Source: Sphagnum compactum
Lineage: Eukaryota
Direction of reading: 5' to 3'
Assembly (NCBI GenBank): GCA_965153455.1
Contig: OZ234493.1
Location: 6,262,001 to 6,309,808, forward strand
DNA: 47,808 nt
In this document: one piece after another, positions 2,600 through 47,229 of the stretch
How positions within the stretch are numbered: position 1 is the stretch's first letter
How the letters are laid out: each line of letters opens with the position of its first letter
Program-made: the position numbers and the translations under genes
The notes under the pieces: model-generated
What the model saw: the letters and a program-made list of their open reading frames with translations, nothing else
Databases searched by the model: none
What the model was told of the DNA's origin: nothing

Positions 2600-3300
2600 C
2601 AAATAATAGGTTGTGGAATTAATATGTTTGAATAGAAAATGATCAACAAAATGGGTTTTTACAACAAGAAGACCCAAGTTTTCCAAAAAACGTTTTATTG
2701 TGCACATTATTTTTTTATAAAGATCTATGGCCCAAAAAAAATTAAAGATGTCGCTCCTATTTATTGTTGGCCTTTTCTTTGCAAGTTCTCTTTCCATCAA
2801 ACTTTTCGTGTTATTGTTCACAAGTTTTCTTCCAATGTTTTTACAATTAATCCATGGTTTGCATCCACATGTTTCTTCAATACAATTATACCATTACTTT
2901 TGAAATAAAATACTAGATTCTTCCTCAACCTTGTCCTTAGGTAGAGAAAAGACATTAGACTATTATAACACACCATAGAAGGCATCAGTTTTGGAACATT
3001 TACATCCACTTTTGACCCACAATTAACACAATAGAATGCCCAACATACAAAATCCCTACCATTAGACTTCTAATGAATTTTTTGCTCATGCAAAATTTTC
3101 AAGATTAAATGCAATGTTTCATCATTTATTGATTGTGAACTTTGCAATGTCTCAAACCTTTTAAACCTTTCCTTTTCACTTTTATCTTTTGGAAAAATCT
3201 CACTTTCATTCATGATAAGATTAAAGCTCTCCTCCACATGGATTGATACCATAATTTTAGGATTTGTTAACAAATTAGTGTTGAAAAAGCTAGTATTCTT
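2600..3300 (-). pseudogene. Decayed AT-rich hAT-type transposase N-terminal (BED-finger-like) remnant
   Basis: Broken minus-strand frames join to ...CWAFYCVNCGSKVDVNVPK..MVCYN...YFKSNGIIVLKKHVDANHGLIV...LAKKRPTINRSDIFNFF. The W..F / C / NG...LKKH...H layout resembles a hAT BED finger. Stops and frameshifts present. Family call from memory. Confidence 0.5.
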
Positions 3301-4768
3301 CAAATTTTGGCAATTGTGATTTGTTTATAATATATAATTTCAATAAACCATAAACAAGCAATTAATGAAAGCAATTACAAATATTTACGAGTTCATCACT
3401 CACTTTATCTACGATGATGCATGACATTATAAAAATATGTCGATGAAAATATGCAAGTGCAAATGAAGTGTCAAATGTTGTCCTTGTTTACAAAGATGGG
3501 TTTAAAAAATGTAAGTCAAAAATGCCTCCCCAAACAATGAAGAAGGTTTAGTAGAACAAACATCGACAATATGACAAGCAAAAGCAAAGCTAGTACTTGA
3601 AACTTCACTAGAATAGTGGGCAGGTCCAGTGTTTCTTTTTACTGGCAAATTTTTGCCAAATTTCAACCTGAAAAACACCAATTGAGAAAAATGGCCAAAA
3701 TTAGTCAGATTTCGAATTAAAAAAATTCCAAATCACCAATGTATTATGATAACTTCCAGAAGGAAGCAAAGAACATAGATTTTTTTATATAAAAAAATTA
3801 ATCTTCATATCTATTATGTAGCCAAATTTGGCTAAATTATTTTCTGGATGATGGACACACTTTGGCTACATCACAAAATCCATGGAAGAAAGCCGGAGCA
3901 AGTGTCTGATCTTTTTACATAAACACCCCCAACAATTTGAATGAGGATAGTACAAATAATGGGTGAGTATCAATTCTTTGTCCCTAAGATGAATTTTTGT
4001 AATGGCATATACTAGTGAATGCAAGCTATAATGGCTCACTTTTGTTGAAACGAGGTAAAACAACGTATTCCCGATTTAGCAAGGAAGAGTAATGAGTGGA
4101 GGAGATTATGGACGGACTCTGGATTGAGCTGCCACTTCTGTAGGAAGAGGCAAACTCGACCACAAAGCTCGGGATAAGAAGGAAGGAAGAATTGGGAAGA
4201 ATTATGCTCTCTCTTGGTATGTGTAGCCGTGGCCACAGTGAAGTGAACCAGCACCCACCAGTGCACCATGAAGGATGGATGAATGGTAAGTGGTCCCAAA
4301 ACAGTTTTTCGTTGGGTTCCAGTTCCCAAGCTAACCATGATGGATGGTTAGCTCAGTTGCTTTTCTTTTCTACCTATCTACCTACTAACAACCCTACAAG
4401 GGGGGAGGTTGTTAGTAGGTAGGTAGTAAAAAAAAAGCCCCTTGCATATGTATAAACCATCTACTTATCTAGTATTTACCTATTTTCCTACCTATCTACC
4501 TATATATGAGAGCTATTTCAAATTGGGAAAACCCAAATGGGATCCCCAAATTCAGCACATCAGTTTTTTTTTTGTTTTTCATTCATGGGCTGCCCACCTC
4601 TAATTTATATTATGGGGGCTAAATATATGGGCTAGGGGGGCTAAGGTGATGTTGGCTATTGATTATGGTTGTTCACAATTTGATTTTTTTATTGATTATT
4701 GTTATGGCTATTGGTTATGGTTATTAGTTTTGGCTATTTGCTATGGGTTTTGGTTATTGTCGATTGTC

Positions 4769-4935
4769 TATTGTTGATGGCTATAGATGATTATTATGGC
4801 TATTGGTTATCGGTTATTGTTGATGGCTATAGATGATTATTATGGCTATTGGTTATCGGTTATTGTTGATGGCTTTAGATTATTATGGCTATTGGTTTTG
4901 GTTGTTGCCTATTGTTGATGGCTATAAATTATTAT
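4769..4935 (+). repeat. 46-bp minisatellite (~3.5 copies) within a GGCTATT/GGTTATT-rich tract (about 4650-4990)
   Basis: Unit TATTGTTGATGGCTATAGATGATTATTATGGCTATTGGTTATCGGT starts at 4769 and 4815 (identical), then at 4861 (diverged). Confidence 0.85.
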
Positions 4936-5009
4936 AATGGTTATTTGATTATTTTTTTTGGCTATTGATTATCTGTTTTGGCTACTGATTATTTTAAAGT
5001 TCAATTTTT

Positions 5010-5516
5010 AGAGTTTAGGGTTTGGGCCTTCAAGATTTGATTTTAAAAAGTTAGGGTATGGGCTTTCAAAGGTTAAATATTAGGGTTTAACTTTTTAGGT
5101 TTAATTTTTAAAACGTAAGTTTGGGTTTTTTAGAGTTTCATTTTAGGTTCTAGTTGGATTTGTTTTAGGGTTTGAGTTTAAAGGTTTAATTGTAGGGTTT
5201 AGGTTTGGGCTTTGCAAGGTTGAATTTTAAGGTTTAGGTTTGAACTTTTGTGGGTCCAAATGTAGGGTTTGATTTTGAAATTTAAGTTTGGGCTTATTAG
5301 GGGTTGAATTTAAGGTTTAAATTTGGTCTTTTGTGGGTCCACATGTTAAAATTTGGTTTTAGAGTTTAGGGTTGGGCTTTTTAAGGTTTGAATTATAGGG
5401 TTTGGTTTTTTAATTTATATTTGAATTTTTTAGGGTCTGAATTTTAAGGCTTGTTTTTTAAGTTTAAATTTGAATTTTTAAGGTTTGACTTTATAGTTTA
5501 GGAATTGCAATTTTAG
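5010..5516 (+). repeat. Degenerate TTTAGGG(TTT) telomere-like tract, resuming at 8082-8170 after the hAT insertion
   Basis: Many TTTAGGGTTT / TTAGGGTT variants on both sides of the hAT element. Confidence 0.6.
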
Positions 5517-8081
5517 CAGGCCTCCTTAAATGTGGGATTTTAAAAATAGACCTCACTTTTACCACATTTAAACCTCGTCGGACCCCACTTTTAAGAGAGT
5601 GAGTCATGAATTGTCCAAAGGTGCAAAACGATGCACCTGGGCTCAATTACAGGCAGAAAGTAGACTTGCGGACCTTGTTGCGGACCTCCGCGTCGCTATC
5701 GTGATCATGCCGCCGAAGAAGAAGTCGAGCCCTTGGCAGCCGGCCTACAAACAGAAGCTCGGGCTGCACGTGACGAACCGCGACGTCAAGACATCCGCGG
5801 TTATCGAGGCGGTCTGCTCGTTTTGCAAATACTTTGGGTGGTAAGTCGACATGGCGAACCGGAAGCGCGTTGCGCGCGTCGCAAACCAGACGTACGGGCT
5901 CGACTTCCATGCGGATGTCATGATCAAACACATGGAGTCACAGCACCAGGAGAAATGGAGCAAGTACCAGGCATTGTCGCCGTCCGACCAGGTCAAGTTC
6001 TTCGACGGGATCGTGTCGCGCAACAACACGCTGCACTGGTACATCGAGATTGACGATGACGAGCTGACGCTCAAGATCTCGAACGTCGTCGTCAATACGA
6101 TCATTGGCGAGCTCTTGTTCCGGCCTGAGGACGAGATGGCCGCCCTCGAGCACAACGATGGCGAGGTTCTCGATCCGAATATCGCTGAACGTGCTACTCG
6201 TCTGATCAAGCTGAAACGCAACGCATTGCTGTTGTTCAAGCCGGATGGCGAAGCTGACGACGGGTCGTACGTCGTCGTGATCAAGAACGTCAAGCGGTTC
6301 CAGCTCATCATCAAGCACGCGTCGTGCGGCATGTTGTTTCGGCAGATCGCGGCTGCGATCGGACACACGCATGATGTGATGAGCATCGGCAAGTTGACCG
6401 ACGTGAGTGACCATCTGGTCGGCCAGTATGTCCGCGTTTTCGTCGGCGTCGCCCTAACCAAGATCGGCGTCCTGCTCTCGAGCGACGACGTGTGGGCGTT
6501 CTCTATCGCGTTCGATGGCAGCACCCATCGCGGCACCACGTTCTTCGACGTCCGCATCCGCATCTCTGTCAAAGGGATCCTCTACAATTTTCATCTGATC
6601 GCGATGCCGCACTTCGGTCACCACACAGCCAACCTGCAGGTCAAAATGCTCGTGACGCTTCTCGGCGCGCTCTGTGTGTCGTGGGCCGACAAGCTGATCG
6701 GGGTTGCGACCGATGGCGAGCGCACGAACATGGGACACATCACCGGCATTCAGAAGCAACTTGTCGACCTCGTGACGCATGACGTCACACAGGTGAACTG
6801 TGTCAACCACCAAGCCGATCTCGTTGTTCAAGCCACTGTCAAGCTGATCGATGAAGGCGAATTCGTCGCAAAAGTCTATGAGGCGACGGTCTACCTTCGC
6901 AAGCAGAACACGCTGATCACCGAGATGGGCGTCGCCAACCCGAAGAAGATGAACCGGTGGGCCGCACTGAATAGTGTCCTCCAGTTCGATATCAAGTACG
7001 AGCGACAAATCATCGCGTTTATTAACGAACGGTGCGAGCAGCGTGGTGTGGCCGTCCCGCCTGTTCTGTTGGAGACGTGGTGGGTCCAAGTCTTTGCGGT
7101 GGCACCTGGCCTCGAACTCGTCCACAAGATGTTCTGCGAGTTGCAAGCTCGCCTCCTTCTCACCTGCCAACAACGCGCGTACGTCAACAAGCTCGTGGTC
7201 GACCTTCAGATGGTGTACAAGGTGCGCCGCATTGATATCGACGCTGAGCTCGGCGACCTCGAGGCGTCAGACTACTTCCAGCGATTTGATTGGTTCGTCA
7301 CCTTCGAATTGCTCGAGTTGTTCGTCCGCAATCAGGGTTCGCGTGCCGAGGCGCACTTCGATGCGCTCGACGACGTCGCGCAGCGCGATGTGCTGACATC
7401 GATTGGCATGTTCGCTATGGGCATTGTTCAAGGCATTATCGACATCTAAGTTGAACGTAATTCACGCAATGAGCCTGCCGACAAGGAGGCGCCGCCCATC
7501 ATACCGTCCGATCTTGTTCGTGTTCAACCTGTCGTGTTCGTCCGCGACGTCCTGCAGCCGCGCAGTGCGCACTTGATCAAGGCGAACTGGGACGTGGACG
7601 CCATCTACAAGATTGAGCAGCAGCATCGCGATCTGGTCAAGGCGTATAAGTACGAGCCCTCCATCAAGACGATCCTCGACCAGCACGACCTCAAGACAAA
7701 ATTCAATGACGCGTGGGAGGCTCTGGGTATTTGGTTCGCGACCCTACGAACGTTCTGTGGCGGCCTCGCGACGCTGTTCCCGAACTCGACCCCCGTCGAA
7801 TCAGACTTCTCCATTCTCAAATGGGAAAAGGACTCGTACCACGACAATTTACTCGACCTGTCGCTAGAGGGTGTCTTCCAGACCAAGCAGTTTGACACAC
7901 TGGCCATCATCTAAACCATGTTTTATTCCTGACTTCGCTATCATGAATAAAACGAACGTAACAGAGGCGCCTATCTGACTCTAAAGTCTAAATTCTAAAT
8001 GGCACACCTGGACCCCCCAGTCGACCCCACTTTTAGCTTATGAGGGTTAAAAGTGGGGTTTACCACTCTTAAGGAGGCCTG
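5517..8081 (+). mobile_element. Full-length hAT-superfamily DNA transposon (2565 bp), GC-rich
   Basis: TIR CAGGCCTCCTTAA (5517-5529) / TTAAGGAGGCCTG (8069-8081). Perfect 8-bp TSD AATTTTAG (5509-5516, 8082-8089). Subterminal CCCCACTTTT-type motifs at 5551, 5583, 8025 and inverted at 8049. Internal transposase frame. Confidence 0.93.
5707..7914 (+). pseudogene. hAT-like DDE transposase, 735 codons, intronless, disrupted by two in-frame TAA stops (5842-5844, 7447-7449)
   Basis: ORFs 5599-5844, 5851-7449 and 7534-7914 are all in one frame. ATG 5707 gives MPPKKK (NLS-like). Motifs: CSFC...KHMESQH zinc-finger-like, AFDGSTH (D, 6514), ATDGE (D, 6712), CVNH (CxxH), NRW, PNSTPVESDFS (E, 7798). AATAAA at 7946. 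Confidence 0.88.
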
Positions 8082-8327
8082 AATTTTAGGGTTTAGTTAT
8101 AGGGTTAGGATTTTTAAAATATGGTTGTCAAAATTTAGGGTTTTAGAATAAAATATTAGGGTTTAAGTGATGGTTTGTACTTTTGTAGACTATGGTTTAT
8201 ATCTAGTAGGGTAGGTTAGTACTTAAAATGTAAATTAAGACTCCAATGTGGACTATATGAAGAATATGTCTTCTTTCTTTTCTTTCCTTCTTGTTTTCAT
8301 CAATTCTTATTTCATTTTGAGCCTTAA

Positions 8328-8636
8328 ATGATGTCTTCTTCAAGCTCTTCAAATAATGATGATTCCACCTCACCTTCAAGTGATGAGGATATTTTGGAGG
8401 ACATGGACCAAGATGACCTTGTCATTTTTCAAACGATGGCTTCGAACATTAATGATTTTTTCAATTCACATGAAATGGAAGAAGGGGTAGGGTCAATCTG
8501 TTGATCTGACCGTTAATGTTCATGATGTTTTGGGTACGATGCAAACTACATTGACATTATTCAAGACTTTGACAAACTTTACATTGGAGGAACTTGATGA
8601 ATTGGCTTCTTGAGTGGTCCCTACCATTAAAGCCCA
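8328..8636 (+). pseudogene. Decayed PIF/Harbinger(ISL2EU)-like transposase N-terminal fragment
   Basis: Acidic N-terminus MSSSSSSNNDDSTSPSSDEDILEDMDQDD..., frameshift near 8490, then ...LFKTLTNFTLEELDELAS*VVPTI, resembling the HTH_Tnp_4 motif (F..LT.FT.EEF.EL). Family call from memory. Confidence 0.4.
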
Positions 8637-14107: not shown

Positions 14108-17100
14108 TCATGGCAACTTCACAACAACCTCCTTACGGTCTGCTCCATATGCCTGGCATACATCACATGTATCAACAATTTCCTTGTCAAGCAAGACCAG
14201 ACCAGTACGGGATGGTGACACATAAGGTATTACTGAAAGACTAACAAACATGGAAACTGCCATCTGGTGCAACAGCTCTGGTCAACACACAGGTTTGACC
14301 TTTCTGACTGTGTCAGGGTGACCAGTCAAATGACCTTTCTCAATGGAAAGCATTATTGACTTGTGGTCAAATGCAAAATATGCACATGTGCAATGTGCAA
14401 CATCTCAAAAGCTCCTAAAAGAATGAAAGAATTGTGTTTGCAGACAGGTGCAACTACTCCCGTTACATGACCCTCAGTTAGAAGGCCAAAATATTGGAGA
14501 GGGACAACATGGTTGCTGTACTGTGCATATGACAGCGTAGGCCAAGCTCACTTACACATTGAACCCTAAAAACCAGGGTAAAGGCTAAAGTGTGAACAGT
14601 ATTGGTCATTGTAATCTTGCAGACAGTCATTGGAGAACCTGGACACAATCTAACTTCTACTACTGGTAAACATCAGTGTTGAAAACAACGACAGTCTGGG
14701 AGGAAACAGGATTCATGACTCCTTTTGTGAGGTGATGCAAATGAAAGACTGAGTGGTCCAGCTTAGATAACTGCCAGGTCCTGCTACTTTCAGACATTAT
14801 CCATAATTTGGCACCTATAGTGAGCTACGAGAGCAGTGATGTGACCAAAAAGTACCTCAGCACCATAACCTTTCACCCAGATGTGAGAGAACAACTCTGA
14901 TGTATCCGGTTGTGGGCTCTCCTGCATAAAGCACATAGATATCCAAGCCATTATTCAATTCTGCAGTGGTGATGTTGAGTGAGGGTAATAATTTGATGCA
15001 GCTTCAAGAAAGTTAGCAGGACCATCTCAAAGCCTGCATAAGTCTAAACATGAAGTCCCCTTATCACAAAGGTCTCAACTTTAGCTCCCTCAGCAACATT
15101 GTGCCTTGAAAAAGAAATGGATCTGGGAGACCAACCTTGGCTTTGGCAAGAGCCTCATCGACTTCACTCTTGGCTTCCTTTTCCAGTGTCTGCACCCCCA
15201 AAAATATCACCCTGTGTTACAGTCCTGCAATGCCCTTTCCCCCAGAACGACTCACTGGTTCCATGATTTCCCCTCAATTAGTAGTGAAACTTGTCCTCAA
15301 ATGCAGCAGTAGGGTGGCAACAATACCAGTAGAGCAGATCAGAGGGTTAATCTACCTTGAGGTCTGCAACACTGGCAATCTCAAGTGATAGCAACAGTTT
15401 CCTGATTCTCTCGATAGGATCACGCTCCTGTTCCACAGAGCACAATTGTGTCATTATAGTGTTTCCCTCCAGCTCCATGAGGAGAGGAAACTAGCTGCTT
15501 AGCCCAATGCAATTAAGCGAAGTAATATTTGTCTCTAATAGAACCTGCTCATAGCTCATCCAGGCAGTGAAGAAAGATGATTGCAAACCTGCCGGACACC
15601 AGAAATCTCATCACGGGTGCGGTAGGTGCTGCCAGGATCAGACATCGAATGACCATGGTAACGATATGTATCAAACTCCAGCACCTTCAATACCAATACT
15701 TGTTAATGAACAAAAATAGTGCAACTTAAAACAACTTCAAATTGCCTTAAATCTAAACAAATAAATGCAAATTCAAATTGGAGTCTGAACAATGAGGGTA
15801 GATGAAGACGGAGCTTACAAAAGGTCCATTCTTGAGAGCATACTCTTTAGCATACTTCACAGCTTGCTTTACAGCCAAGCAGTCCATGCCATCCACCTGA
15901 GTTATCCACCCACAGAATAACAAAGAAACTTAGTCCTTCAAACCTATGCTCAATACCATAGCACTGCAATGACATGAAAGCTGCAGGGAATAAGAGGCAA
16001 TTCTATGCAATATATTGCAACACAAGGACTTAAATGAGGTAGGGTATTACCTTCATCCCAGGAACATAGTCACCACGTTTATAGTATTCAGGGCTCTTAG
16101 CTGACCGCCACTCAGCCGTTCCCATACCATCTGAAGTCACACAAGCATATTCCAACTTTCAGGGTCAGAAGATCTTGCCCTTGAAGCAGATGGAGTTCTT
16201 GGTGAACCTGGCTCACAAAGTTACTAGTGGAGAGTTAGAAAATCAGAACAAGCTCCCCAACCTTTAATATGACAGTTCTTGCAATGAGCATCCTTTTCAA
16301 ACTGGAATCAGAAGATGACATGAGCTTTCTGCTCCAAACTGTGTTTTATGGTTTCTTCTAATTTCAACAATAAGCAGAAATTTTCAGGGAGGGAGTGCAC
16401 AAAGGTTGAGATATAAATGTGTAATACCAGAATAATGAAATACTACAGCCATAAACACACAGGGAATTAGAGATCCAATTCATGAAAAAGAATGGCCAAC
16501 ACCTTAGGGTTTGGACTATGGTACTGAACAGAGAGCTCAAAACAAGTAGATTTCAATTCAATTGAGAGCTCCCAGGATATGGAGTAAAGGGACATGGCCC
16601 AGATACTGACTGCCCTGCCAAACTTGTACACCTTAGTTTAAGCCATGGTGAATGTGGATTGAGACAAAGGAAACTGCTGCTGTAAGTCAATGCACAATGG
16701 GTGGCAATCATTGTGCAACCTGTGACAGATCTAGATGACCTGCTGGACGAGGCAAGTTGGACAGTTGAATAGAACATACTACAGCTGAAAAAATTGGAAA
16801 GCGATCTAGAAGGTTGGACAAGAAAGATCCAAATTCAGATGACTGCTGACTCTAGGGTTTTATGCATGGAAGATTTTCCTTCTTGTTGGAGCATTCCATA
16901 GAGAACCAAGGGGATCTGGATTAGAAATCCATACTTACAATGATTGTTTTCACACACAAAGATGACAGGTAAGCTCCACAGCGCGGCAATATTCATGGCT
17001 TCGAAAAGCTGGCCCTGATTGGCAGCACCGTCTCCATACATTGTCAGGGTGACGCCGTCCACCTTCAAGTACTTTTGAGCGAATGCAAGGCCTGCACCCA

Positions 17101-17677
17101 ACGGCGTTTGCGCACCGACGATGCCATTACCTCCAAAGAATCCTCCTTTCTTGTTATACATGTGCATGGATCCGCCTTTCCCAAGAGAGCAACCATCCTT
17201 ACGACCCATCAGCTCGGCAAAAACCTCCAAAAGCGTCCCTCCTCTGCCCAAATGGATGCAGTGATCCCTGTAGGCCGTGATAATACAGTCCTTTTGGTTC
17301 AACGACGCCTCCATCCCCACGCACACAGCCTCCTGGCCGTCGTAGAGATGACAAAACCCACGAATGAATTTCGACTTGTAGAGGGAGTCCGCCGCGATCT
17401 CCATGCGCCGCATGGTGAACATGGTTTTGAAGAAACTCAAAAGCTCCTGCGCCGATGTCTCCACAGAAAGCGATGGCGCATCACACTTGTGCGCTTTGAA
17501 GGGCACAGGCACATCCACCGTCAACGCATCGGCCGCGAAACCCGCTCTCTGCTGCTGCTGCTGTCGCGGGATGATGGAATCTGATAGTGGAATCAGCGAA
17601 GAAGAAGCGGAAGAGGAAGAAACAATTGCCGACAAACGAAGCAAGTTACGAGTACGATGACATAACTGCTGCGCCAT
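14108..17677 (-). CDS. PDHA1: Mitochondrial pyruvate dehydrogenase E1 component subunit alpha (409 aa)
   Basis: Exons (minus): 17677-16939, 16130-16051, 15896-15819, 15684-15589, 15427-15356, 15189-15136, 14921-14856, 14152-14108 (TGA). All introns GT-AG; total 1230 nt in frame. Motifs [15 protein letters not shown]-binding GDGAANQGQ...ENNHY, phospho-loop [20 protein letters not shown]-rich N-terminal presequence. Confidence 0.97.
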
Positions 17678-17700
17678 GGCCGCCAAATCCCGCAACCTTC

Positions 17701-22509: not shown

Positions 22510-25242
22510 TCACCGTTCCCAGCCACGAGTGTTAAGGTCCAGCTCACTACCTCTAGGCATTGAGATCCCATTTCCATAGTTTAGATCAAGAGCTCCTCCT
22601 ACCTTCATATTTGTTGATGCTGGTGTTTGAGCTGGTCTATGGGGTGCTCCCATGTTACTACAATATTTAGTTGTCACCTGTAGTGATGAACGAGTAATTG
22701 AAGTATGGGGAGATCCACCACCACCATTTCTTTCCTCCGCCAGTGATTGGATTGTACCCCTCCTGGGTGTGGGCCTCTCAAGTGCAGAAGCCCCTCCTTC
22801 TGATGACTTCATCATGAAAACATGGGAATCAGAGATGGTCTCTTTGGATTGACCCATTCTACCATCTGCAGGAGAAGATTTGTCACCTGCTCCTTCTGCC
22901 CCCCCAATCCCAGCACTCAATGAGAGACTGTCTTGTGAAGCTACAGACCATGAGGGGGGACCCTTCAATTCGGTAACGCCCTTCAGAGCGGCTGCAGCCT
23001 TAGCAAGCCTATCCTCAGCTCTAGCATTGCTTGATCCCTGCATGGGTGGGAAGTTAGCATTCATCTCGCGAAGCTGGGCCATCTGCTGCCCCTCACCATC
23101 ATCATCCTCTGAATAAGTACAGGAACTGCAAGCTCTTTTCTTACCCGTTGCTGCCTGCTGCTCGCCACATCCTGAAGCACCCCCACTGTCCTCAGGGTTA
23201 GCTGTGAGACTGGTCAGGTAGCTCTTCTGTGATGAAGAGTCTGATACCCTTGACTGCTGGCGAGGAAGCTGCTGCTGCCGCAGTAGGGATGATGCACCCC
23301 CTCGTGGATCCACAGCGTGTTGCAAAGATTCAGGACTGTTTATTCCAGGCAAGTTCATCCAGGAGAAAGATTGGCCCAATGGGTCATTACTGACTTTGGA
23401 TGCAAGCTCAGTGAGCTCTGCATGAGCAGCTTCCAGCCCTGGAGACGAGGATGCATGTCCAGCTAATGTTTCCTTTGCTTTCTCCAAAATGGATTGTAAA
23501 TACTTGCCCTGTGCTTCAATCCGTAATTGGAGGCTTCTTTGAACCTGCATCCAACTCCAACCATTGGTGTCAACTTCATTGCATTGGTCAAGTAAAAACA
23601 CCAAATGTGAATATATTGAAAAGCAATCTTCTGATACAAAACATCCAAAAGACGTAGGACTTATGCTGTGTGAGCAGTCTTGAGCATCAAATAGTCAGCA
23701 AAAGGTTGAACTGAACTGACAATTCAAGAGAGGACCAAAGATACCTCAAGTTGCTGCTGTAGGCGATGCTGCACTTCCATTTGCACTCGAATTGCTTCTG
23801 TAATTTCAATGCCACTGAAAATTCCACCATGATAAACATCAGTCATTGCATGCACCCAAAATTTATATTCGCATAGTTACTGTATATTGGTCACCAGGAG
23901 TAAGTAGAAAAGATGTTTTGTCAGGTTGTTGCATTATGAACAACTATTAGGGCAATCTGAATCCAGAAGACACTTTCAAAATGACTAGCTGCAGTAGAGA
24001 AGGCTGTAAGGGAATTTTGTGGGGATGGGGGTGCTGTTTTGAATAGTATTCTGTAAGCACTAACATGCTAAAAAACCAAAACATGACAATACACTAAGCT
24101 TATGACTGTCACATACTCTTGAGGATGCTTTGGTTGAAGTGTGGCCATGCTATCAGAAGCAACATTGCTTGATAATCGCATATCTGAAGACCCCGAAAAT
24201 AGCAAAACTCATCAGGCCAGTAAGGCTACCAAAAGACACAGTCATACACACAGACAGAACAATCATTTGCATGTTTTAGAGCATAAAGCAATCTATGTTC
24301 CTCTCAAGAAGAGATTGACAACACTGTACACATCCAGGTATTTACAACAGAACACAATCTGCTGATTGTCCCACCCAAATGGAAGTTAGATTGAAACAAA
24401 ACAATGGCATGCAATTCTCAAGAGTGGACATTAAAAAGAGCATACCACGGGGTCCATCCTTATTTGCTTCATGAATATTTGTATCTCTGTGAAGTTGCTT
24501 CCCAAGTCTGAACTTCTGTAAGACAAGGATCACCTTGTTGAGTCAAAATCTATTCTGACACATGTACTTTCACTTTCTTTACAAGGAAAAACACCAGCCC
24601 TCCAGAACTGAAAGCTTTGATCAACAAGTCAATGTTCAAGAAATCACTGACCTGGAGATGGCTTTTCAAGTGGTAGAGTGTGAGACCCTTTACACCCATA
24701 ACTCGCAGCACAGATTTAGGTGTTGCTTCTGCACAATTTTTCATAAGCAAGTGTTGATTTAGCATGCTTTACAAATGCAAGAATCAGGTCAAGGAGATGT
24801 GCTCAAATCAGAAATAAGATACCTCTGGTACATCAACTTGTGGGAAGAAGAAGATTCATTTTCGTGAATTGATCATACTATGGCTCATATAGGACTTTGC
24901 TGATTTGCAACTGATGTTGATGCAGCTTCTCATCAATGGGTAGATCACATATTTGGTACAATAATACATGGGATGTGAGGTGATGCATAGAGCTTCTCAG
25001 AAGAAGAGAAGGTAAGAAAGGAACTTACTATCAGCACCTCCAAGCTGTGCTACTGCATCGACAAAACGCTCATGAAGCTCTGGCGTCCAACGCAAGCGTG
25101 GCTTTGGATCAGCTGCATTCACTCCATGAGCTGCTAAGCTGCCAGCATAAAGACTCGGCCGCTCAAGGTGTGGTGAAGTCTGTGGCCGGTGTGGCATCAA
25201 CCCCCCTGGGGGGCTTGATGTATACTTCTTAATTTGGTACAT
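22510..25242 (-). CDS. APL: GARP/G2-like MYB-CC transcription factor, APL/PHL clade (510 aa)
   Basis: Exons (minus): 25242-25029, 24728-24652, 24515-24446, 24183-24117, 23814-23745, 23544-22510. GT-AG introns; 1533 nt in frame. MYB domain [60 protein letters not shown] is very close to Arabidopsis APL as I recall it. CC domain [43 protein letters not shown]. The symbol means APL-like; orthology not proven. Confidence 0.92.
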
Positions 25243-31509: not shown

Positions 31510-31800
31510 AACATTGCAATCAATTATGGGATCATTAAGCCAATTTTTGTTCGCTAAAATCAATTTCTCAAGGTTCTCAATTTGCAACCTACATCAACAA
31601 AAATTGGTCAATATACTAGCAAGGGGAAAAATGTAATCATTCTCAATTTGAAATCCTGTAGTGCACAAATTTTATTGTGCAAGCAAAACCCACAATGGGT
31701 AACATATTCTTGTGTTTGCTGCACCATTGCTAAGGGCACATGTTATCCTTTGCATCAACCTAAAACTGATTGAACAATAACAACTTTCAAATGATGCAAT
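31510..31800 (-). pseudogene. Decayed hAT transposase C-terminal dimerisation domain (host-type, AT-rich)
   Basis: Minus strand: LLAQ*I/CTTGFQIENDYIFPLASILTNFC*CRLQIENLEKLILANKNWLNDPIIDC, a degenerate form of the Dimer_Tnp_hAT pattern LA..IL.I..S....ERIFS.AG......R.RL...NLEKL. Confidence 0.65.
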
Positions 31801-45860: not shown

Positions 45861-47229
45861 ATTATTCATGAATGTTAGATATTTTGAGCTTGAACCTAAA
45901 ATGCTTGAAATCAAATGTATTAATGTAAAAAACTTTGAAGTGTATAAAGTATACCATTAAGTTTAAAGTAATATGTCATTTGCCCCCAAAAAATGTAACA
46001 ATTTTAAGTGTCCGTGAACCTAATCCTAACCCAAATAAAACCCAACAATGGAATGTTACTTGACACAAATAAATTCATGTTTTGTTCATCACCTAAACAA
46101 ACTCGCATAGTGATATAATTGCACTACGACAAAAAATGTAGATGGCAAAAGATAAATAGGCAGAAAAAAACATAAAGAGCCAAAAACACCAAAAATGACA
46201 AAAATCCAAAAATAAAAGGTACTCACCAAACAAGGTATACTCATATAAAGGATCTCCATTGTTGCTCATTTTATATTGCATGAACCAAAAAATAGTTTGG
46301 CTCAAAACAGGAAAAGGGAGGGCAAAACAATATGCACATGTAAGGATAATGCTTCTTCATAATCAAAGCACGAGGGAGATGTTAAGGATAAGCCATAGAT
46401 GAAGGCAAAGGTCCATGACTTGTATATTACACTTTGACAAGTGTTGTCCCTTAAAGGATTCAAGGAAGACATGATTGTAATGTGAATTGCAAATAGCCTT
46501 GTTAGGCTTCTTGTTGATAAGCAACACATGGTCTTTCATATGATGATGAAACATTGACTAAAACTCTAAATACATCATGTTCAAATCTTTAAGATAATAG
46601 GTTAAAGTTGGTGTGATTCTACCCAACATTTGGGAACATCTCTCTTTCCCCCAAACAAAAACAAACTTGCATATGAATTGCCTTGGCATGAGCAACAGAA
46701 GAAGTTCATGAATGTCCTCTAACAACATGCCAAACCAAATTGCAATTTGGAATTCTTTGAATGTTAAAACAAATAATTGCAACAACCATGTCTCTTTTCT
46801 ACCTTGATCACATCTATGGTATGGTCTCACACATGATGACGCCTTTACAAAATTGCACTTTTAGGAAATAACATAGAACACCATTGAGATTGAAAATTAT
46901 TTATTTATCTGGTAAGATGGAAACTTGTCAAAAACCTGAAGTAAAAACCTTTGAGAGTGAAGGTCAACATAAAAAAGAGGCTTAGGGACATCACTATAAG
47001 TCATGCAATCACATTTGAAAGCAAAAGATCTTGAATTGGCGTTCCTTGAAAAGGAGAAGCATAACACAAGAAAGAAACAGATGAAAAAAATGGATATCTA
47101 ATGCAAAATATTGTTATAATCTCCTTTTCATTAAGATTTTTCTTTGACAAACTTACAATCTAAAGCTTCCATTCATTGGTGCAAGGTTGAAAGAACCTCC
47201 CATAATAGGGGTATTAGAGTCAAAAAATT

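Follow-up and report, generated by a model that had tools for sequence, protein, structure and literature searches.

A dead hAT transposon copy in Sphagnum compactum, from a family probably acquired horizontally from an oomycete-like donor

We analysed a 47,808-nucleotide stretch of Sphagnum compactum DNA (hereafter the window; assembly GCA_965153455.1, contig OZ234493.1, positions 6,262,001 to 6,309,808 of the forward strand), which carries at positions 5517–8081 a 2565-bp element that we assign to the hAT superfamily of transposons. Two host genes lie further along the window. One is represented by an exon of pyruvate dehydrogenase E1-alpha (Pfam E1_dh), 97–99% identical to six named Sphagnum entries, the next named entries being the liverwort Calypogeia (88%) and the moss Ceratodon (85%); the other is an open reading frame (ORF) for a plant-type MYB-CC (LHEQLE) transcription factor. 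Judged by these two genes, the window is Sphagnum nuclear DNA. Features are listed with their coordinates in Table 1.

Both ends of the element were exact. Its terminal inverted repeat (TIR), CAGGCCTCCTTAA on the left and TTAAGGAGGCCTG on the right, was perfect over 13 bp and matched at 17 of 19 positions if extended, and an 8-bp target site duplication (TSD), AATTTTAG, stood directly outside both ends. Contigs from other sequencing runs departed at exactly 5516/5517 and 8081/8082 into different flanks, and the same terminus was present in eight of nine related loci (L001–L005 and L007–L009; L006 was without the end). The window element is flanked by a degenerate tandem repeat rich in G and T (periods 46, 49 and 83–84), and since this repeat contains words similar to AATTTTAG, the window TSD by itself might be chance. 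It is not chance, because each related copy with both ends has its own perfect 8-bp duplication elsewhere: all four such copies sit in unrelated flanks with perfect TSDs (AATTTTAG in the window, CTTTTCAC in L001, ACATTAGG in L002 and GTATTAGG in L009). The ends, perfect TIR and TSD proposed in an initial annotation of this DNA were thus borne out. A subterminal repeat of 12–13 nt, (G)ACC(T/C)CACTTTTA, occurred four times, twice near each end and in both orientations at the right end; these repeats are probably transposase-binding sites. One candidate for an empty site was rejected: an X8 contig joined 5486 to 8084, with 21 nt on one side and a repetitive flank, too weak for an insertion polymorphism.

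A single frame of 735 codons runs between the termini; it is free of frameshifts, and 22 full-length relatives are collinear with it. Two premature in-frame TAA codons interrupt the frame, at codons 46 and 581. Relatives read glutamine at both positions ('...GRQVDM...' in protein P0003 and '...NIQAERN...' in P0002), and the codon before the first stop encodes tryptophan in the window copy and arginine in relatives. Both premature stops and the tryptophan codon would be consistent with C>T changes. With two nonsense codons, the window element is a pseudogene copy and not structurally complete. Of the intronless, frameshift-free frame and the structurally complete element that had been described at this locus, the frame therefore stood, and the completeness fell at the two TAA codons where relatives have glutamine. 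Two ways around the stops were rejected. Use of TAA as a sense codon, considered with all three stops of the frame being TAA, was dismissed because TGA is the stop at codon 736 in all five other copies that extend that far, and was also ruled out by the glutamine codons at both internal places in other copies and by the land-plant host. Tiny introns around the stops (GTAAGT follows the first) were dismissed because the 22 full-length relatives are collinear and gap-free at both places.

Pfam searches found no transposase family in the read-through protein (P0001) or in any of the 23 family members at E values up to 1, and PF05699 (Dimer_Tnp_hAT), zf-BED and DUF659 matched 0/23 at the same threshold. 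A profile of the family alignment (A1: the window protein and 22 full-length relatives) returned three chance-level rows from PDB sequences (E 0.39–1.7). The fold was more informative. An AlphaFold2 model built on the 23-sequence alignment (predicted local distance difference test, pLDDT, 84.1; predicted template modelling score 0.74) was submitted to Foldseek, and its 12 best matches were all the Hermes transposase (E 2.6e-9 to 3.4e-6). In VIA-align, six Hermes entries superposed with Z scores of 17.6–20.6 over 401–413 residues at a root-mean-square deviation of 3.8–4.4 (residues 226–737 of the model against 135–609 of Hermes); the next row was a retroviral integrase core, at Z 10.2.

Conservation pointed the same way. 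Eleven residues were at least 90% conserved in A1 (D270, D336, C365, H368, R417, W418, E698, C37, C40, H75 and H80), and D336, W418, E698 and F701 were invariant in the 23 sequences. D270 ends the strand 265–274, D336 directly follows the strand 330–335, and E698 lies within VESDFS; from this order and spacing, D270/D336/E698 would form a putative catalytic triad, with E698 as the presumed third catalytic residue in a hAT-type C-terminus. No Pfam match to the PF05699 dimerisation domain was obtained, yet the structural alignment reached Hermes residue 609 and the ...ESDFS... motif was present. The N-terminal CxxC/HxxxxH region may be a BED-like zinc finger. Together, the 8-bp TSD, the short TIR, the D/D/E, CxxH and RW motifs and, in the predicted model, an RNase H-like core of Hermes fold split by a helical insertion place the element in the hAT superfamily, as the initial annotation had it.

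Hermes, from Musca domestica (PDB 4d1q, 6dww, 2bw3, 8sjd and 8edg), is the closest structural parallel. It shares the fold of the predicted model from the RNase H-like core to the C-terminus, has D, D, CxxH, W and E in the same order, and likewise makes an 8-bp TSD; we take Hermes D180, D248, H268, W319 and E572 to be ordered and spaced like the conserved residues of the window protein. Sequence identity, in contrast, was only 12–14%, and no PDB chain gave a sequence-profile match. The window protein also exceeds Hermes in length by about 130 residues, and its N-terminal part is different; the structural match says little about this part, the finger region being barely covered by the Hermes alignments. 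By analogy, an active transposase of this family would work as Hermes does: the N-terminal CxxC/HxxxxH finger would bind DNA, the core (D270/D336/E698 with CxxH and RW) would be split by the helical insertion domain, and the protein would recognise the 13-bp TIRs together with the subterminal ACCCCACTTTTA repeats, cut the element out and integrate it again, duplicating 8 bp of the target.

TIRs of hAT elements are about 10–25 bp long and commonly start with CAG, and an 8-bp TSD, subterminal repeats and a single transposase gene are typical of Ac-type members. The window element has all of these in common with Ac/Ds, Tam3 and Tag1-type elements, including a short TIR that starts with CAG. It differs from them in that the family has no PF05699, zf-BED or DUF659 match and no named seed-plant relative, and in its composition, with a GC content at third codon positions (GC3) of 0.77 and undepleted CpG. 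Ac and Buster are both named as groups within hAT in the abstract of PMC3942097. Resemblances to the Buster side came from precomputed annotation: PF27073.1 ('FAM200-ZBED5_RNase-like'), which points to Buster-type hATs and ZBED5-, FAM200- and GTF2IRD2-like proteins, is assigned to ten more distant family members (P0022, P0026, P0035–P0038, P0040, P0044, P0049 and P0056). Our local Pfam copy gave no match even for P0022. ESM Atlas neighbours of one relative, P0013 (scores 0.88–0.92), carry PF27073, PF14291 (DUF4371) and PF05699 (Dimer_Tnp_hAT). The window protein and its closest relatives differ from Buster-type proteins in having no Pfam match at all, and we treat a position of the family on the Buster side of hAT as a lead only.

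ZBED5 and FAM200 derive from Buster, whose target preference is nnnTAnnn. The four complete copies all had TT at the centre of the TSD instead of this TA. At the few further sites where the eight bases left of a copy end could be read by eye, the centre was TT (L003/L005), TA (L004), and TA and CA (two X8 loose ends).

Table 1. Features of the element and its surroundings in the window (positions are those of the window; domain rows are predictions).
Feature	Position	Strand	Remarks
Left TSD AATTTTAG	5509..5516	.	identical to 8082-8089
Left TIR	5517..5535	+	13 bp perfect, 17/19 extended; loose ends of other copies at 5516/5517
Left subterminal repeats GACC(T/C)CACTTTTA	5549..5593 (5549-5561, 5581-5593)	+	inverted partners at right end
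Transposase pseudogene	5707..7914	+	735 codons; ATG 5707, terminal TAA 7912-7914; AlphaFold2 model pLDDT 84.1
N-terminal CxxC...HxxxxH region (C37, C40, H75, H80)	5815..5946	+	columns at least 90% conserved; no Pfam zf-BED match
Premature stop 1, codon 46 TAA	5842..5844	+	P0003, P0004, P0005 and P0006 read ...GRQ/RRQ...
RNase H-like catalytic core (predicted)	6484..6816	+	strands 265-301, D270, D281, D336, C365/H368; conservation, secondary structure, Hermes alignment
All-helical insertion domain with R417/W418 (predicted)	6847..7686	+	conservation, AlphaFold2 model, Hermes alignment
Premature stop 2, codon 581 TAA	7447..7449	+	Q in P0002 and P0006; TAG in L009
C-terminal region, VESDFSILKWEKD motif (E698)	7738..7911	+	E698 and F701 invariant; aligned structurally to Hermes C-terminus up to residue 609
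Right subterminal repeats	8023..8062	+	GACCCCACTTTTA at 8023-8035, inverted copy at 8047-8059
Right TIR	8063..8081	-	inverted-repeat match; X1 contig record 8 crosses the end
Right TSD AATTTTAG	8082..8089	.	matches 5509-5516
Degenerate G/T-rich tandem arrays	4693..5496 and 8082..8170		periods 13/26/46/92, 35, 83-84, 49; GC skew up to 0.67
ORF of 162 aa	10408..10896	-	no Pfam match
Pyruvate dehydrogenase E1-alpha, exon	16835..17698	-	Pfam E1_dh
MYB-CC (LHEQLE) transcription factor, ORF	22510..23694	-	plant-type

The composition of the element is foreign to its Sphagnum host. The element has a GC content of 0.55, a GC3 of 0.773 and a CpG observed/expected ratio (CpG o/e) of 1.32, against a GC of 0.353 and a CpG o/e of 0.34 in the rest of the window and 0.31–0.34 and 0.17–0.27, respectively, in the 2-kb flanks. 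The two host ORFs differed from it as well (GC 0.49–0.52, GC3 0.40 and 0.60, CpG o/e 0.26 and 0.89). The step was sharp and fell exactly at the element ends, and the counts on which a foreign composition had first been proposed were exact (33/60 GC at 6001–6060 and 12/60 at 5401–5460). To our knowledge, oomycetes are without CpG depletion. Their genomes, where listed in Table 1 of PMC3681718, have 47–58% G+C, and the composition of the element fits an oomycete-type source.

Nine related loci were recovered from metagenome contigs, at no fewer than six distinct insertion sites as judged by their flanks, and seven copies were compared (the window, L001, L002, L003, L004 (partial), L006 and L009). 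Pairwise DNA identity was 86.6–93.8%, with the window copy at 86.6–89.2% to the others, and transitions between copies exceeded transversions roughly 5- to 10-fold. Many variants of 90–99% identity cover the element in all four sequencing runs compared (two organism labels, four studies). The near-complete copies were broken without exception (6/6). Premature stops numbered two in the window copy, five each in L001, L002 and L003, and seven in L009; L003 also had a 29-nt insertion, L006 a 7-nt insertion, and L009 two small deletions together with an 870-bp insertion in its 3' part (about 4994–5863, locus coordinates).

This decay was strongly biased. In 20 of the 22 premature stops of the L copies, the window has CAG, CAA or TGG at the same place. 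Changes private to an L copy, relative to the majority state, were C>T or G>A in 81–100% of cases (303/364 pooled; lowest in L006, at 35/43). Pooled over the six L copies, C>T changes affected 7.0% of CG sites (126/1800), 8.3% of CHG sites (59/713) and 1.9% of CHH sites (53/2739), compared with 0.23% transitions at A/T sites (13/5742), so that C>T at CG and CHG ran approximately 30 times faster than transitions at A/T sites. A high rate at CG and CHG with a low rate at CHH is what plant cytosine methylation with subsequent deamination would be expected to leave, and this plant-type decay implies that the copies have resided in a plant genome. The slow A/T sites differ very little between copies; thus, raw identity overstates the age of the copies.

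Among the seven copies, that of the window had the highest GC (0.55 v 0.505–0.527) and CpG o/e (1.32 v 1.03–1.31), and it carried 57 C>T/G>A changes relative to the majority state. It differed from the others by 53–58 transversions, compared with 22–28 among the full-length L copies, which points to a sub-lineage somewhat apart from theirs. When the C/T and G/A polymorphisms were crudely polarised, they gave a stop-free starting state with a GC of 0.61, a GC3 of 0.82 and a CpG o/e of 1.41. The ratio of nonsynonymous to synonymous substitution rates (dN/dS) between copies was 0.19–0.32 (0.19–0.25 for the window v the L copies), whereas a crude neutral simulation with the measured mutation bias gave 0.38 ± 0.05. 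The low values between window and L copies are a weak hint that some of the divergence accumulated while selection still maintained a working transposase, in which case the family would have been active in Sphagnum for some time.

Some of these remains appear to have entered gene catalogues. The S. magellanicum gene models P0005 and P0006 skip stretches of the frame and are 60–67% identical to the window protein, compared with 82–88% for other copies; they appear to be dead transposase copies annotated as host genes, the gaps presumably arising from predicted introns. For annotation, the family presents a practical difficulty: it escapes the Pfam hAT models, and the S. magellanicum gene models omit parts of its frame.

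We considered that the element might be an assembly artefact, oomycete contaminant DNA wrongly joined into a moss contig. The sharp compositional step at the exact ends would fit such a join, and among the contigs listed, no single one spanned the whole element with both flanks and no piece covered the left junction. The right junction, on the other hand, is crossed without a difference by a 351-nt contig (X1 contig record 8, covering 8053–8403), which reaches only 29 nt into the element. A TIR and TSD this precise would not be expected of a chimeric join. Other copies lie in different flanks, AT-rich and moss-like, with TSDs of their own; relatives occur on Sphagnum chromosome-scale records of 16–32 Mb; and decay by C>T at CG and CHG sites points to a history within a plant genome. 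We regard an artefact as next to negligible.

Relatives of the transposase were sought in two word-indexed protein searches (5.8 billion proteins), which gave 41 and 33 matches. Nineteen distinct relatives carried an organism name: 12 were from Sphagnum (seven species), four from the oomycete genus Aphanomyces (three species), two from Batrachochytrium salamandrivorans and one from Fragilaria crotonensis. No other land plant was among these 19, within the annotated proteins to which the searches extend, and a search with the host gene drew dozens of other plant taxa from the same database. The patchy taxonomic distribution of the family is suggestive only. The family as a whole is large. When 1.84 billion representatives were searched by profile, 9165 proteins matched at E up to 0.001, and 1214 matched at E up to 1e-30.

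The Aphanomyces proteins, from A. invadans, A. euteiches and A. astaci (P0015, P0019, P0020 and P0025), were full-length and collinear with the window protein and 37–45% identical to it over 60–100% of the query. They share a clade with the window's lineage (support 100/99) and, compared as proteins, are too distant to represent the donor. With 45% as the best identity to any named non-Sphagnum protein, no sampled donor is close, and the similarity that would mark a recent transfer was not found. For the relative P0013, to which the ESM Atlas result applies, the nearest cluster (score 0.97) had 86 members, of which the phylum was known for 80, and the commonest phylum was Oomycota. The likeness to oomycete and stramenopile proteins that the initial annotation had proposed was thereby corroborated, in three Aphanomyces species, a diatom and a chytrid, with no other land plant and with an Atlas cluster that is mostly Oomycota.

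The same transposase family was seen in the amphibian-pathogenic chytrid B. salamandrivorans (P0052 and P0057) and the freshwater diatom F. crotonensis (P0032), at 32–33% identity. All of the named hosts live in fresh water or in wet habitats. Words of the element also occurred, in small proportions, in air and moss metagenome runs, which we did not use as evidence of habitat. Viral contigs were considered as a possible vector, and none of 107 pattern matches was a relative.

We built two trees under the LG+G4 model, a quick one of 85 rows and a careful one of 29 rows. Sphagnum and Aphanomyces rows were interleaved in both, and the Sphagnum rows fell into four lineages. S1, the lineage of the window, comprises S. 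compactum, S. troendelagicum and S. magellanicum (support 100). S2 consists of the S. fallax protein P0014, which is placed weakly as the sister of S1 (82/71). S3 comprises S. jensenii, S. tenellum and S. balticum and lies within Aphanomyces in the arrangement (A. invadans, (A. euteiches P0019, S3)), supported at 100/100, 97/94 and 99/97. S4 is the S. magellanicum protein P0030, placed with A. astaci and Fragilaria in a separate clade (99/98). In approximately unbiased (AU) tests, a topology uniting all eight Sphagnum rows in one clade against five Aphanomyces/Fragilaria rows was rejected (delta log-likelihood, lnL, 437.7, P = 3.4e-5). As reconstructed here, the family phylogeny is at odds with the host tree. 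The AU results with and without S4 make two separate Sphagnum lineages firm, and three or four are only suggested.

Our preferred reading, to which we give a probability of roughly 0.65, is that 5517–8081 is one dead copy of a multi-copy Buster-like hAT transposon in Sphagnum, of a family acquired horizontally from an oomycete-like donor. Most likely, the family is not native to land plants and entered the Sphagnum lineage horizontally from an oomycete-like (saprolegnian) source. The transfer is not recent, and it did not take place as the window copy, because named proteins of the sub-family come from three Sphagnum species, its copies are diverged and dead, and no sampled microbe exceeds 45% identity in protein. 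Entry into Sphagnum would have preceded the spread of the sub-family over several Sphagnum species. The window copy would then have inserted into the G/T-rich minisatellite and been methylated by the host, with subsequent C>T deamination creating two CAA>TAA nonsense codons. As a dead copy, it is unable to make its own full-length transposase. The family retains a donor-like composition (GC3 about 0.8, CpG undepleted).

A fresh transfer of a structurally complete element from a microbial associate, as the initial annotation proposed, would sit well with the perfect 13-bp TIR and TSD, the absence of frameshifts, the highest GC and CpG o/e of the seven copies, and a count of only two premature stops v five to seven in four other copies. 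Against it stand those two nonsense codons, the 86.6–89.2% DNA identity to sister copies with 57 C>T/G>A changes from the majority state, and a sub-family that is present in three named Sphagnum species with its nearest named non-Sphagnum relative at 45%. The two stops and the diverged sister copies largely refute a fresh transfer, which we consider very improbable. Of the original proposal, the foreign, oomycete-like origin of the family is retained, and the recent arrival is given up in view of the nonsense codons, sister copies at 87–89% identity, three host species, the distant non-Sphagnum relatives and decay of plant-methylation type.

The main rival to horizontal acquisition is vertical descent with massive loss, by which an old hAT lineage from the eukaryote or plant ancestor disappeared nearly everywhere and was kept in Sphagnum with a GC-rich composition of its own. 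In its favour, identity to Aphanomyces reaches only 45%, the family is very large and diverse, and common ancestry of S1, S2 and S3, three of the four lineages in Sphagnum, was not rejected; a dN/dS between sub-lineages below the simulated neutral value is a further hint of an active life inside Sphagnum. This history is harder to reconcile with the absence of any other land plant from the 19 named relatives, with Sphagnum lineages interleaved among Aphanomyces and the rejection of one Sphagnum clade, and with undepleted CpG and a GC3 of 0.77–0.82, which would be hard to maintain in the long term in a methylating genome, given the approximately 30-fold excess of C loss at CG and CHG over change at A/T sites. 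We consider vertical descent unlikely, though well ahead of a fresh transfer or an artefact.

Several points weigh against horizontal acquisition of a hAT family as we propose it. From outside Sphagnum, the best named protein reaches only 45% identity and points to no particular donor, and very old vertical descent is compatible with this similarity by itself. Transposon proteins are often omitted from plant annotations, and other plants might be among the 65 rows of the 85-row tree that lack an organism name. Both trees used a single-matrix model and not a mixture model, and the branches that place the window's lineage had supports of only 82/71 and 86/76. The strong AU rejection is due mainly to one S. 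magellanicum protein, P0030, in the second clade; monophyly of S1, S2 and S3 against the two nearest Aphanomyces rows was not rejected (delta lnL 6.26, P = 0.051). A transposon can hold its own base composition without being foreign, and methylation is here deduced from the mutation pattern. As for the hAT assignment, the catalytic roles of the conserved residues are deduced likewise, and the Pfam hAT models (Dimer_Tnp_hAT, zf-BED) match no family member at E up to 1.

A bolder extension of the preferred reading, which we hold tentatively and at somewhat less than even odds, is that Buster-like hATs invaded Sphagnum two to four separate times from saprolegnian oomycetes sharing its bog water, within a wider exchange that reached a chytrid and a diatom. 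CG/CHG methylation would have killed each invader, leaving GC- and CpG-rich fossils whose decay could date the invasions. We know of few documented cases in which transposons passed horizontally into plants from non-plant eukaryotes. In the texts returned by a full-text literature search, we found no report of transfer of a hAT or other transposon between oomycetes and Sphagnum or other mosses; PMC11417382 describes HelenSM92, a Helentron-type family in Sphagnum magellanicum, to illustrate the occurrence of this group among land plants, in passages that make no claim of transfer. If the inferred origin is true, several transposon lineages would be common to a land plant, Sphagnum, and to water moulds of its own habitat, and the ecology of transposon transfer would become testable. 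The copies would offer a clean natural read-out of a plant methylation system eroding a CpG-rich newcomer.

Other observations concern the remainder of the window. The initial annotation had also listed hAT remnants at 2600–3300 and 31510–31800; none of 11 stop-to-stop ORFs there matched hAT Pfam models, and tblastn with seven family proteins found no second copy of the family within the window. A weak tblastn match at 46547–46675 (minus strand) to the C-terminal ...ESDFS... region of P0016 (E 0.034, 39% over 44 residues; no Pfam match on its ORFs) may be a remnant of another hAT-like element. Many units of the G/T-rich arrays around the element recall what we take to be the plant telomere word TTTAGGG. 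Positions 501–1500 are extremely AT-rich (GC 0.13–0.16), and the 162-aa ORF on the minus strand lies in an island of 51% GC with a CpG o/e of 0.21. The two host genes also differ from each other in CpG o/e, at 0.89 in the E1-alpha exon and 0.26 in the MYB-CC ORF, a contrast that may reflect a difference in gene-body methylation.

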